A stretch of 61,837 bases of DNA, filler included, from Dugesia japonica (Eukaryota): NCBI GenBank assembly GCA_001938525.1. It is 5 parts of 5 records of this genome, joined end to end, with 100 filler letters (N's around TTAATTAATTAA, not from the genome) between each part and the next. Parts side by side here need not be neighbours in the genome. Positions count along the whole stretch, not along the records: positions 9,341 to 19,541 come from MQRL01617408.1; positions 19,642 to 32,626 come from MQRL01565157.1; positions 32,727 to 46,073 come from MQRL01579061.1; 2 more parts are not named here. One strand, 5' to 3'. The translations under genes and the position numbers were made by a program. Under the pieces are notes generated by a model, which was not told the origin of the DNA, did not search any database, and was given only the letters and a program-made list of their open reading frames with translations. Positions 11,311-36,530 of this stretch are shown here, in pieces. The first letter of the stretch is position 1; every line of letters begins with the position of its first letter.

Positions 11311-12122
11311 AAGTGTATACTGGTATCTTGTTGCAAATATTATCATTGTTGGTAATTAATTTCAAAAGTAATCTGAGATGGACAATCAATAGACAATCTC
11401 CCATGTTTGTCATAAATTTTTAATGATCCAAGTCAAGCAAATAAACGAGCCTTTATTTCATAATTTATCATTATCTTTAATATTATTCCGATTATAATTC
11501 TCATTCAAGCGAATTAGTTAACAATCTTATCATAATTATCCTTACCCTTATTCCCATTAATTATATTTCGGTATTGCCATTAATTATTATCACTACCACT
11601 TATCGTTAAATCCTATCGTCACTAATCCCAATCATTAACTATTCAATTGAAATCCTTATTTTAAATAGTTGTCATCATCAACACTATTATTATTATAATT
11701 ATTATGTTTATTATTATTATTTTCATTATTAAAGTTGTCAAAAGTTATTACGAGCGACTTGCATTACGCCCGATTGCATGTAAACCTATACTCTGTTGAA
11801 CTGTAAATGTGGCAGGTAAAAACTTTTTGAAACGGATTACACACATACAAAATTTCTTTTGATTTAAACTAATACCAAAGATTTTTCAGGGCCACAAATC
11901 TGTCGATAGATAACTGGGACACCCTGTAAGATTCTAAAATTGTCTGACCTCTTTGATATGAGATTGTTTCTGAGTAAAAACTATTTTATCAATTCATTAA
12001 TTATTATTAAATATTTTTACAATTACAATTATTTCGAGACAAATTGTTGGACTTAATTATTGATTACATTTGAAATTTCATTAAAATAAAAGCTCATATC
12101 CAAATTATTTATTTCTTTTGTT

Positions 12123-12166
12123 AGTTATTCGAATTTTCGACTATTGTCTTCTTCAGGAATGTAACT
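12123..12166 (-). ncRNA. Minimal type I hammerhead ribozyme (Penelope pLTR/retrozyme-like)
   Basis: Minus strand reads AGUUAC-AUUC-CUGAAGA-A-GAC-AAUA-GUC-GAAA-AUUC-GAAU-AACU. It has the CUGANGA and GAAA cores, a 3-bp stem II, a palindromic AAUU helix III, a UUC cleavage triplet and a pairing helix I. Confidence 0.75.
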
Positions 12167-12194
12167 TTTATAAAAATTATATTTATAAATTTAT

Positions 12195-12223
12195 ATTCCT
12201 GAAGAAGACAATAGTCGAAAATT
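12195..12223 (+). ncRNA. Second hammerhead copy, inverted, cut by an assembly gap
   Basis: ATTCCTGAAGAAGACAATAGTCGAAAATT is the exact reverse complement of 12132-12160. Confidence 0.65.
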
Positions 12224-12689
12224 NNNNNNNNNNNNNNNNNNNNNNNNNNNNNNNNNNNNNNNNNNNNNNNNNNNNNNNNNNNNNNNNNNNNNNNNNNNNN
12301 NNNNNNNNNNNNNNNNCATAATAAAATCTTACAAAAAATGTACTGATTTTATATATTACATAAAGAAAATTATAAAAATTTCAATTGTTCAGAAATATAA
12401 ATAATCAATAAATATAAAACACTCTTTTTATAAAATAAATAAACCAACACTCTTTTATACATTTAAATCTTTATCGCGCATAATGTGACAAATAAAACAA
12501 TAATAGATCATTTTACAATTTCACGCATAATACCGTTAACAGATATTTTATCTTATAATCCTGGAATTTCCAAAATTTAAGAAAGCTTGTATTTTAGTGT
12601 TAACAATACAGTCAAATTACACATTCGTATAATAATTATAATTATTCCAATAAATTATATTAAATTTAAAGTCGCATTCTTGGTAAAAC

Positions 12690-12990
12690 TTGTATCACTG
12701 AGACATTTTATTAAAAATTGCAACGCTTATGAGATTTGTTATTAGATATTGCAACACTTAAGAGATATGTTATTAAAAATTGCAACACTAATGAGTATGT
12801 TTATTAAAAGTTGCAAAAACTAATGAGACTTTTATTAACAATTGCAACACTAATGATATTATTTATTAAAAACTGCAACACTAATGAGACAATTTATTAA
12901 GAGTTTCAACACTAATGAGATATTTTATTAAAAATTGCAACACTAATGATATTTGTTATTAAATATTTCAACATTAATGAGACAATCATT
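12690..12990. repeat. Tandem minisatellite, about 30-bp unit
   Basis: Roughly 9-10 degenerate copies of TTATTAAAAATTGCAACACTAATGAGATAT. Confidence 0.85.
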
Positions 12991-13297
12991 ATGAGATTTT
13001 TAGAGAAATAAATGTCGCCTTTTCCAAGAAAATCTTCTTCAATATCTGAAATAGTGATTAAGCAAAATGATAATCTGCAGTTTTCATGAAAGATGCATGC
13101 AATAAAGGCATGTTTGTTAGAAAACAACAATCGGACAAATCAATTATAGTTTGGCTAGGAATTTTTAAAATGGGAAAACTAACGTTATTTTGGTACCTCA
13201 AGGAGCAAATCTCAATGCTAAATTCTATCTGGATTTGATTTTGGAGAAAGTAATGAAGCTTTTTGCGCAAACTCATTTAAATAATAGGGACTAGTGT

Positions 13298-32774: not shown

Positions 32775-32829
<55 letters not shown>

Positions 32830-33620
32830 AATTAATTATTATTATTATTATAAGTATTAAGTTCTCTAAAAATGTAAAAAAATGAATATGATAATGAAAG
32901 TGTATTTTTTATGGTTTTAAATAAGTCTAAAATTTTGGATCTTTAGTCTGAGATAAAATTTCACTACTTTCTATGTAATAGTATGAAATCGTACAATTTA
33001 CTTGGATTTATTTATACTTATTTACATATCGAAACATAACTTTATAAATAAATGAAAAAATTATTATATAATTAATTTATTTTTTAAATATTTGTTTGGT
33101 TTACAGTTATTTTCTTTTTGTGTTATTTTAAATTCTTAATTAGCATTTTAATTTTATCATTGTGTATAAATATTTCAAAATAATTTAACGTTGTAAAATT
33201 AATAATATTTTTAACAAGGAGACATGATTTATCCTACCCACACTTTCAAGGTTTGTTTAACGGTGTTGATAAATTTCATATTAGATTATTATTTGTTATA
33301 TTAGATTTGTTATAAAATCTAGAACATTTATTATTCCACTTTTGTTTCTATATTGTTTCATATTCAAATAGTCAGAAAAAGATTTAGAGTTTCACTTTTA
33401 GTTTTAAGTAGATGCATGACGTTACCATCTGCGTGTAATTTGGATTCATTATTTATCGACGATAGAAGTCGTAAAGAAAGAAAAATCAAATAGTCGCAAT
33501 TATGCTATTTTGCACGCAATATACATGNNNNNNNNNNNNNNNNNNNNNNNNNNNNNNNNNNNNNNNNNNNNNNNNNNNNNNNNNNNNNNNNNNNNNNNNN
33601 NNNNNNNNNNNNNNNNNNNN

Positions 33621-34798
33621 NAATTGCTTGTTTTCCATGCGGAGCCATTTCACCTCGGCCTCCAACTTCCATATCTTCATACCCTGGGCTGCGTCTCTCC
33701 GGGTATACTCAATATTTTGGTGACGGAATTGGGTCATCTCGAACACCAATATTCCTATTTTTTCCTGAAGAGCTTGACAGGCTCTTTACCGATTTGTTGT
33801 GGTGGCTAACTGTCCATCAAAGCTAGCTGCGATTTGAACCTCTGCTCCAAAGGTTCGGCTTGGTCGAAGTTGGAACAGGTGCTGATTAGCCACGTTCTGT
33901 GAGGCATTTTCGTCCATATCTAAAAGCATCAGATTAATTCGTGCTTAATCTGGATTCCATTATTTTTTAATGAAATAGGACGATCGTGAGTCTTAAGATT
34001 TTAGAAAAGTATTTATTGCTATGGTGGCCATCTGTTACTGATAAGTTAAGAAAATAAATGGCAATAAGTTAAAACCTATAGAACATTATGGTAACGAATG
34101 AAGAATACTAATTTATATATTTCAAAATTTAATGGTAGTATTATAATAACAGCGGTGGTTATAACTGAATGATAATGTACCTAATGTTTTTAACTAAATA
34201 ACGTTTAAAAAGACCATGGTTCTAATAGTAATTATAGGAAGGTTATTGATGACATGAGTAAAAATACTATACTAATCTCTATTGCTAAGCTAGGAGTAAA
34301 ATTGTAAGTTGACTATCGTAATAAATTTTATCGCTAAATAATTATATCAATGGTGGCAACCACTACTAGCAATATAAATAATTTACAGATAGTAGCAATA
34401 ATAAATCTTAGTAATGGTAACACGAATGATGATCTCAAGTCGGTAATCTTACTAATTATAGTGAAATTATTCCTAAAAATAGTAATAATCGTAATAATAA
34501 TAGCGACTAATAGTAGTAACTATCATGCTGATGATTAAAAATGATAAGGATATTAACAATAATANNNNNNNNNNNNNNNNNNNNNNNNNNNNNNNNNNNN
34601 NNNNNNNNNNNNNNAGTAACTATCATGCTGATGATTAAAAATGATAAGGATATTAACAATAATAATACTAATAATTAATAATAATACTAATCAGGATAGC
34701 GATAATCCTAATGATATCAATGATTAGAATAGTATTAATAATAATGATAATAATGGAACTAATAATAATAATAATAATAGTAGTAATATTAATAATAA

Positions 34799-34848
<50 letters not shown>

Positions 34849-36107
34849 NNNNNNNNNNNNNNNNNNNNNNNNNNNNNNNNNNNNNNNNNNNNNNNNNNNN
34901 NNNNNNNNNNNNNNNNNNNNNNNNNNNNNNNNNNNNNNNNNNNNNNNNGTGATAATCGTAGTGACAAAACGTTAAATTGTTGATAATAACAAGAACGATA
35001 ATCATATGATTAATAATAATGGCTATAATAATAAGACCAAAATGTTCATAAACGGAAGGCTAATAGTAGTGGATACAGTATTACTAATGTTAATGATATT
35101 TTCAAAACTTAATAATCAAACTTAATACCGTTAGTACTAAAAATATATTAATTATAATAAAATAAACAACATAACAGGTTATAAATTTCGTCTTATGTGT
35201 ATCAGTTAAATATGAAAATAATAATAAAAGAAAAAATATAAGATTAAGACTTTTAAATAATTAAGATTTAATGATAAGACAAAATTACATAGTACATACT
35301 GTCGTAAATAATGTGCCGGAGATGACTATGAGACCAAGTAACTGATTGATGCTCGAATGGATGAACGGGATAAACTTGACAGATCGGTTCCTGGAATAGA
35401 TTGATGTTGGATTGGAAAATAATTCGTTTGTTAGTGACAGATTTTCCTCTAAAATAAAGATGATAATTTTCTTTTCTTCTTCGAGTAATCAAGTCAAGTG
35501 TAGAGTGTTGTAGTTTTCTCGCACTGCTTTATATAANNNNNNNNNNNNNNNNNNNNNNNNNNNNNNNNNNNNNNNNNNNNNNNNNNNNNNNNNNNNNNNN
35601 NNNNNNNNNNNNNNNNNNNNNNNNNNNNNNNNNNNNNNNNNNNNNNNNNNNNNNNNNNNNNNNNNNNNNNNNNNNNNNNNNNNNNNNNNNNNNNNNNNCG
35701 GATTGTTGTGAGGAGATTTGATATGACGTCAATTTTTGGATTGACAAGATAATTGATATATGAGAAATATGAAAAGTCCCAGTTGAAATTGTTAAGACAA
35801 TTTGATCTAATTCGAACACTGTAATTAGATGAGCTTTGAAATCTTTCTTGGAAATCTTTAGTTTACAAATCGTTTTTCTAGTTTTTAATTAACTAGTTTT
35901 TAAGGGGTGATTTTATGATTTTTGCGGGTCTTTTTATACCCTTTTCTAAGCATCGTCCTATCCCGATTGGAAGATTATTGCGATTAACTACATTATTTTT
36001 TGATATTTGTTTTATATTTTTCCAGAATCTATTTCTTTTCCCGATTAATGTTTCTTTATTTTCTTCAATATGATTGATAATTTAAATTTTCTTATTTATT
36101 TTCAACA
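33621..36107 (-). mobile_element. Possible 5' end of a long-LTR retroelement: LTR-like block of about 2.1 kb (36107-34033) plus a GC-richer coiled-coil ORF relic
   Basis: Minus strand runs TGTTGAAA...GTAACA then GATGGCCACC. Internal TATA-like motifs and AAT arrays. Downstream disrupted helical ORF (ALQEKIGILVFEMTQF..LEAEVKWLRMENKQ). Confidence 0.3.
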
Positions 36108-36439
36108 ATGTGGGAGTTTTTCGCTGGGAATTAATAATGACTTTTAATAATAATAACTTTATTTGTTGAAATATAATTTAAATTTTCTGGAATTAGTTAT
36201 CCAGTTTATTTTATCATTTATTGTTGAAAGATATAGTTGAAAGATATATATACAATACCGCAAAAAAATCAAGTCAGCTAAGATGGTTAATTTTATCCCA
36301 TTATCCGAATATGAGTTTCGTTCTTATATTTTCTGTTTAATGAATAATCTGTTTGTTTATCTGATTAAATTCTTAAGTCGAGTAATTTAAATAATTTAAA
36401 CAAGTAATCATTTTCCTAATTTTGTAATGTAAATTAAAA

Positions 36440-36530
36440 TAAAATAAAAGGTTTGATCAAAATTCTTTTTTTTTGACAATGATTTTAATTTTAGACTTTG
36501 TCTTCGTAAGGAATTAACTTTTTAATTGAC
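36440..36530 (-). repeat. Hammerhead-repeat family copy, degenerate
   Basis: Reverse complement AATTC-CTTACGA-A-GAC-AAA-GTC-TAAA-ATTA, then AATTTTGATCAAAC. Confidence 0.6.

Follow-up and report, generated by a model that had tools for sequence, protein, structure and literature searches.

Minimal hammerhead ribozymes have been reported in animals in numbers of thousands per genome, mostly in truncated Penelope-like elements (PLEs) (PMC4209133). PLE hammerheads have four traits in common: a base between positions 9 and 10.1, the pair G10.1-C11.1, a palindrome at positions 15.2-16.2, and a short helix I; hammerhead pairs occur on opposite strands, and most solo motifs were taken for truncated PLEs (PMC4209133). 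Here, we analyze a dispersed repeat family with such a hammerhead in a 61,837-nucleotide stretch of DNA from Dugesia japonica (assembly GCA_001938525.1), hereafter the window. Its copies are most likely heavily 5'-truncated insertions of one old PLE family, consisting of the minimal hammerhead and about 60 or 115 nt downstream of it.

The architecture of PLE insertions has been described for several animals. In Adineta vaga, Penelope copies have a shorter pseudo-long terminal repeat (pLTR) in inverted orientation, one of their ends is extended by a tail of 31 bp, and the target-site duplications (TSDs) measure 8-10 bp; the pLTR reaches into the open reading frame (ORF), containing its first 12 codons, or 22 when the tail is included, and pLTRs suffice for mobilization in trans (PMC3846280). 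An inverted truncated copy together with a one-sided tail of 30-40 bp is presented as a general PLE feature, and non-autonomous PLE derivatives have been reported (PMC8557442, Fig. 2 for the architecture). In vitro, a Poseidon enzyme cleaves both strands of AT-rich DNA and starts reverse transcription at two internal positions between which the tail lies, and in PAc, the Poseidon element of Anolis carolinensis, the ORF begins at hammerhead helix II (PMC11167929). The Poseidon hammerhead cleaves only with protein and is dispensable for insertion (PMC11167929). Metazoan retrozymes, on the other hand, are head-to-tail tandems with canonical hammerheads (PMC7229834).

The window, with a G+C content of about 25%, consists of five unrelated scaffold pieces. 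The artificial joins between them (9241-9340, 19542-19641, 32627-32726, and 46074-46173) are each made up of 44 N, a 12-nt linker, and another 44 N.

Results

A complete minimal hammerhead at 12.1 kb

The original prediction for this DNA had placed an intact minimal type I hammerhead with a cut at 12131/12130 on the minus strand, and re-reading of the sequence bears this out. The motif, which we call copy A, is complete, spans 34 nt (12127-12160), and reads, from 12160 down to 12127, as helix I AUUC, CUGAAGA, an extra A, helix II GAC-AAUA-GUC with AAUA as its loop, GAA, the palindrome AAUU, C17, and helix I GAAU; the cleavage position 12131/12130 is predicted from the sequence. Six copies bear a hammerhead, and copy A is the only one in which the core positions C3-A9, G12-A15.1, and U16.1-H17 are complete in type I helix order. 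It has all four of the PLE traits listed above, the extra base following A9. It also agrees with the consensus in Fig. S3 of PMC4209133 in CUGANGA, the extra H, the G..C pair closing helix II, GAAA, and the absence of a loop III, as well as in the palindromic 15.2/16.2, UH, the short helix I, and AU-rich flanks. Among the published hammerheads, one from Adineta vaga has the same helix I arms, and one from C. briggsae likewise has a helix II of 3 bp (PMC4209133). Three differences from the published hammerheads (PMC4209133) were noted: helix II of copy A (3 bp, 4-nt loop) lies at the short end of the range, A15.2-U16.2 is rarer there than C-G, and no associated ORF was found in the window.

A strict descriptor built on the published PLE hammerhead traits matched once in the window, namely at copy A, as opposed to no match across 400 simulated windows that served as the null. 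A looser hammerhead descriptor is expected to yield 0.05-0.10 matches per window, so that a lone motif found with it would be weak evidence. Exact-pattern scans of prokaryotic genomes returned no match. Covariance models, which had been suggested as a further check, did not support the motif: the Rfam hammerhead models matched neither in the whole window when E values of up to 1 were allowed nor, at a limit of 10, in the best two copies. The authors of PMC4209133 detected minimal hammerheads by pattern descriptor. Rfam matches to mir-513 and mir-506 on the hairpin 12137-12218 reached 44 bits, compared with gathering scores of 72 and 84, and were dismissed as a by-product of the inversion described below.

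Twelve arms at seven loci

The hammerhead is part of a repeat family with 12 arms at seven loci on three of the five scaffold pieces, which confirms the dispersal claimed by the original prediction. With E values below 0.1, a profile built from six seed copies retrieved these six and five other arms, 11 in total; when each seed was left out in turn, all six were recovered (E 1.3e-6 to 6.7e-21), while the best E in the reversed window used as a control was 0.68 or worse. The 5' half of the hammerhead occurs exactly five times in the window compared with 0.05 expected. Copies at different loci are about 50-90% identical, and the proposed motif at the tail end is exact in three of them (12032-12015, 29538-29521, and 30041-30024). 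Altogether, the family accounts for about 1.0 kb of the 59.7 kb sequenced and is devoid of an ORF body. A high genome-wide copy number is plausible.

Downstream of the copy A hammerhead, a segment with the long 3' end including the tail extends over 12015-12126 on the minus strand (profile match, anchored end mapping). Copy B (12179-12223, +) is the inverted arm of the same locus; its hammerhead (12195-12223) equals that of copy A until it is cut by the gap 12224-12316, which begins before the cleavage nucleotide. The 24 kb locus comprises copy C, a long arm (23981-24121, +), and a short inverted arm (23914-23980, -; profile E 5e-9) that starts near G12, has GAAAAUUA intact, and terminates at the short 3' end. 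Copy D (25311-25405, +) has the short 3' end, while the locus at 29.5-29.8 kb combines the tail part of a long arm (29519-29625, -), the inner part of which is lost in the gap 29626-29752, with a short inverted arm (29753-29789, +; 33 nt, 94% complementary). The insertion at 30 kb is complete and free of gaps. Its long arm (30022-30146, -) begins just 3' of the hammerhead cut site and is separated from the short inverted arm (30183-30244, +; 70 nt, 91% complementary) by a junction spacer (30147-30182) that repeats the inner end of the arm itself in scrambled form and contains a 17-nt direct repeat and a small palindrome. Copy E (30363-30441, -; profile E 0.002) is degenerate, and copy F (36430-36525, -) faces a 12-nt remnant (36560-36571, +) in which the 3' half of the hammerhead is intact. 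To judge by its sequence, this remnant is probably the start of the inverted arm of copy F and thus the twelfth arm. The 12-nt 3'-half pattern has five matches, compared with 0.38 expected per window; one of these, at 22539, is away from every family arm and was taken as chance.

Decay of the hammerhead copies

The module had been predicted to recur at about 12195, 23986, 25320, 30435, and 36525. Copies do exist near all these positions, yet none of them is intact. In addition to the intact copy A and the gap-cut copy B, one copy has a mismatch in helix II and three have broken cores. In copy D (hammerhead 25320-25353), the core is intact with U as H17, but a U-U mismatch lies within the 3-bp helix II; the copy is predicted to fold differently, with helix probabilities near zero. 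In copy C (23987-24019), GCAA takes the place of GAAA; in copy E, the hammerhead 5' half is kept (30431-30420) and helix II is lost; and in copy F (36514-36482), the core reads CUUA and UAAA. Judged from these sequences, the pattern among the copies is that of decay following insertion.

A variation of the helix III palindrome between AAUU and AUAU had been noted, with helix I pairing retained. However, AUAU is confined to copy C with its broken core, the inverted twin arm of which keeps AAUU, and the variation is therefore no evidence of selection.

Inverted pairs, two end classes, and a target-site duplication

The original prediction had not included the inverted pairing, five further arms, or a TSD. 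Arms are arranged head to head as inverted pairs at four of the seven loci (12132-12223, 23914-24074, 29581-29789, and 30077-30252), and a fifth, that of copy F, is probably inverted as well, to judge by its 12-nt remnant. We mapped 3' ends by anchored extension from a shared ATG for nine arms, copies B and E being outside this test. The ends fall at +58 to +69 from the ATG in four arms and at +4 to +14 in another four, with none in between; the end of the ninth arm, copy F, could not be placed. There are thus two 3'-end classes about 55 nt apart, and the hammerhead lies about 60-115 nt upstream of these shared ends. All three pairs with both outer ends readable consist of one long and one short arm. 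Inner ends, by comparison, differ from locus to locus, and in several arms the first base lies within the hammerhead or past it.

On either side of the gap-free 30 kb pair stands a direct repeat of 15 nt, the left copy of which (30010-30024) overlaps the element end with its last 3 nt, while the right copy (30245-30259) is identical to it at all 15 positions; allowing for the overlap, this corresponds to a TSD of 12-15 bp. Of 52,072 window positions, 35 have an anchored 12-nt repeat at the spacing of this pair.

On its outer flanks (23891-23909 and 24122-24140), the 24 kb pair has a 19-nt inverted match (89%) and not a direct duplication; the match may have arisen by chance, the DNA being AT-rich, or represent an inverted duplication of the target.

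Palindromes of this kind could also have arisen during assembly or amplification, given that three of the seven loci touch an N gap and that the arms at 12.1-12.2 kb are identical across 29 hammerhead bases. However, the arms of all four inverted pairs have diverged by substitutions and indels, the 24 kb and 30 kb pairs are gap-free, and the latter has a TSD, all of which makes an artefact extremely improbable. Nor is it at all likely that the loci are miniature inverted-repeat transposable elements (MITEs) or fold-back DNA elements with terminal inverted repeats and a chance hammerhead-like string. The presence of hairpins some 220 bp long flanked by direct repeats, a fold z-score of -15.5 for 30010-30259, and remnants of DNA transposons nearby would be in line with such elements; on the other hand, the two arms do not mirror each other at their outer ends, the inner parts differ per locus, the duplication measures 12-15 bp, single arms occur, and the hammerhead descriptor match is beyond chance.

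The arrangement of the arms bears equally on the retrozyme-like nature that had been considered for the family, i.e., tandem repeats that self-cleave to monomers and circular RNAs. Non-LTR retrozymes resemble the family as short non-coding repeats with a type I hammerhead and a probable dependence on PLEs (PMC7229834; bioRxiv 10.64898/2026.07.22.740005); here too, the hammerhead sits inside a short dispersed repeat, and solo monomers exist among retrozymes, which are related to pLTRs (bioRxiv 10.64898/2026.07.22.740005). The window, however, does not contain any head-to-tail tandem array of the unit, and in the absence of such arrays here, a classification as a retrozyme is not supported. Furthermore, its hammerhead is not canonical but of the minimal PLE type, which is set apart from retrozyme hammerheads in PMC7229834, and its arms are inverted, an arrangement that would block folding. 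We consider a retrozyme origin highly unlikely.

A short interspersed nuclear element derived from a tRNA was rejected as a candidate after ARAGORN had reported no tRNA gene in the window, bearing in mind that a decayed head could escape detection.

Predicted folding of the ribozyme

In the monomer fold of copy A, the pair probability is 0.86 for helix II and 0.16-0.27 for helix I, and the 4-bp helix III is possible only between two molecules. Read-through RNA of the inverted pair at 12.1-12.2 kb is predicted to form a hairpin of -47.6 to -56.5 kcal/mol in which the core is buried. On the basis of these folds, ribozyme activity at the present loci appears doubtful, as helix I is weak in the monomer, helix III is only intermolecular, and the read-through hairpin buries the core. 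Published activities of minimal PLE hammerheads are low (PMC4209133) or dependent on protein (PMC11167929).

Coding potential of the tail

The tail had been read as weakly encoding LIEAFILNELKP, with a presumed likeness to a GIY-YIG C-terminus that the analyses run here do not support. This peptide is absent from every frame of the window; it is a composite of LIEAF (25376), AFILNE (29600), and ILNELKP (29776), which stem from three different copies. None of ten tail translations matched Pfam, and an alignment of tail fragments, which is a weak test, did not point to any protein among 154 candidates. Moreover, the pLTR extends into the beginning of the ORF in two PLE families that have been studied (PMC3846280, PMC11167929). 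By analogy, what follows 3' of the hammerhead would more probably correspond to the start of an ORF than to the end of an endonuclease. As in PAc (PMC11167929), there is an ATG where helix II begins, but only in copy D out of the six copies, and its frame is short, closing after 23 codons. Another ATG-led frame of 22 codons in the tail is open in three of four long copies. Since 448 of 2,096 ATG-led stretches across the window (21%) are open as well and the copies are related, this frame is only a lead.

Other repeats and gene remnants in the window

Remnants of transposons and genes are scattered over the window, which suggests a transposon-rich eukaryotic genome, probably that of an invertebrate; on the first and last scaffold pieces, the survey covered selected ORFs. 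A broken, Maverick/Polinton-like type B DNA polymerase gene (2016-3621, -) matches PF03175 (E 1e-6); 19261-19540 and 57000-59500 (both -) look like further type B polymerase fragments and are without a Pfam match. Two broken pol regions of Gypsy-like LTR retrotransposons with reverse transcriptase (RT) plus RNase H are present at 20533-23150 (+) and 43682-46000 (+), the second of which has a zinc knuckle and a protease as well. Mariner/Tc1-like transposase remnants lie at 14860-15156 (+), about 41000-41550 (+), and 30502-30618 (+), the last some 60 nt from copy E. An exon with a ubiquitin-like domain (15648-16025, -) matches PF00240 (E 3e-13). Open stretches of 201 and 116 amino acids at 6529-8327 (-), the first part of which is cysteine-rich, resemble host-gene exons; neither has a Pfam match, and no homologue was found for the longer one.

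Among the repeats, an inverted pair (16649-16977 and 18053-18267; 207 nt, 95% identical, about 1.1 kb apart) encloses minisatellites of 31-33 nt (17227-17298 and 17694-17805) and might be a non-autonomous DNA transposon. Another dispersed repeat, about 160 nt long, occurs on three scaffold pieces (24826-24994, 42924-43085, and 53419-53583; 69-77% identical) and bears no relation to the hammerhead family. Minisatellite arrays are located at 12699-12982 (31-nt units), 16400-16510 (22-nt), and 61144-61486 (23-50-nt); the latter two are alike despite their different scaffold pieces.

Discussion

Probable truncated ends of a Penelope-like element

The general picture that emerges is that the copies are probably truncated 3' ends, i.e., pLTRs, and stem from an autonomous PLE family that resides at other places in the genome. 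A link to PLEs is supported by analogy with described elements, because the motif fits the PLE hammerhead consensus and the loci exhibit inverted arms, a one-sided tail, and a TSD; the link put forward by the original prediction is now on stronger ground than when it was first argued. With the insertions in PMC3846280 and PMC8557442, the loci share an inverted truncated arm beside a direct arm, an extension at one outer end, a TSD, and solo pLTRs. With PAc, as its layout is described, they share a distance of about 100 nt between hammerhead and 3' end, two end classes, and AT-rich targets (PMC11167929). The published insertions usually have an ORF between the repeats, whereas none is present at the loci in the window (PMC3846280, PMC8557442).

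Several observations weigh against an origin from PLEs. The tail measures about 55 nt instead of the 30-40 bp in print (PMC8557442), and the duplication was found at only one of the three pairs with both flanks readable, the other two being without a convincing one; at 12-15 bp, it is also longer than the 8-10 bp in PMC3846280. Stem covariation, which had been proposed as a check, was not apparent in an alignment of only seven rows: 91.7% of 36 cells are paired, 78 of 500 shuffles attained the observed score, and the one double change in the helix pair counts is located in the degenerate copy. No PLE protein could be linked to the family. Short RT and endonuclease motifs were without convincing match, GIY-YIG or PLE-type Pfam matches were absent from 148 of the 157 open stretches listed near the copies and from the six frames of 33.3-46.1 kb, and a check for an adjacent ORF with RT and GIY-YIG found none near the copies. 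Finally, in none of 14 comparisons between loci did homology reach further upstream of the hammerhead than about 25 nt (scores of 19-41, with null values of 36 at 95% and 46 at 99%), and neither a copy carrying an element body nor a full-length copy of the parent element is present in the window. Truncated copies are not expected to carry an ORF for RT and GIY-YIG, and with no such partner found, membership in the PLEs is derived from structure. Some 90-130 nt upstream of copy D, a weak match to the short inverted arm (25190-25231), which may be a decayed arm, reached the null's 95th percentile at 90% A+T and was not counted.

The upstream limit could alternatively indicate a dedicated non-autonomous RNA of about 150 nt that consists of the pLTR only, has its own master copy, and is moved in trans by a PLE enzyme. 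The six arms with a hammerhead all have their start in the 25 nt or so upstream of the core and share no sequence beyond that, the roughly 1.0 kb of family sequence is without an ORF body, and both mobilization in trans by pLTRs (PMC3846280) and non-autonomous PLE derivatives (PMC8557442) have been described. Variable inner ends and arms that begin inside or after the hammerhead are, however, what random truncation is expected to produce, and short truncated ends predominate in autonomous families too (PMC4209133). Seven loci are too few to separate the two sources; we regard the dedicated element as possible but rather unlikely.

A model for insertion

For an autonomous parent element, insertion might proceed as follows. 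We infer a PLE enzyme, i.e., the RT-endonuclease of a parent outside the window, that would nick AT-rich DNA with a stagger. A cDNA would be primed at one of two internal start sites on the element RNA and stop early, and a second cDNA would be laid in the opposite direction. If these two cDNAs, each from its own nicked strand and its own start site, were joined head to head, two arms would result, one longer by the tail, between TSDs. Both outer junctions look like priming junctions because both RNA 3' ends face the target flanks, and template switching or repair at the arm junction fits the scrambled 36-nt spacer at 30147-30182. Afterwards, the inserted copies decayed. In the parent RNA, the hammerhead would most likely cleave only as a dimer, via the 4-bp AAUU duplex, or with the help of protein, while read-through RNA of inverted loci may form a long hairpin that buries it. 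Twin priming of L1 resembles the proposed model with two cDNAs, except that both arms copy the same interval here. The exact head-to-head model was not met in the literature searched, which mostly did not cover subscription papers.

With considerable reservation, the model can be taken one step further to a protein-free element, about 150 nt long, that comprises only the pLTR with its hammerhead of 34 nt and depends on a Penelope enzyme acting in trans, and in which two-ended priming yields one cDNA per RT start site and the two meet near the ribozyme. If this were true, the two start sites and the staggered spacing of the nicks could be read from each locus, and its transcript would be a hairpin by which its own ribozyme is silenced.

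Implications

As a class, the family is ordinary: it is one more case of the minimal-hammerhead PLEs already described for animals. Its repeat unit can serve as a starting point for the annotation of a PLE family that goes undetected by Rfam and is mislabelled there through sub-threshold microRNA matches. The short, ORF-free inverted pairs are clean insertion records, and genome-wide counts could show whether each insertion, as a rule, has one long and one short end, which is relevant to the as yet unsettled mechanism of PLE integration (PMC11167929).

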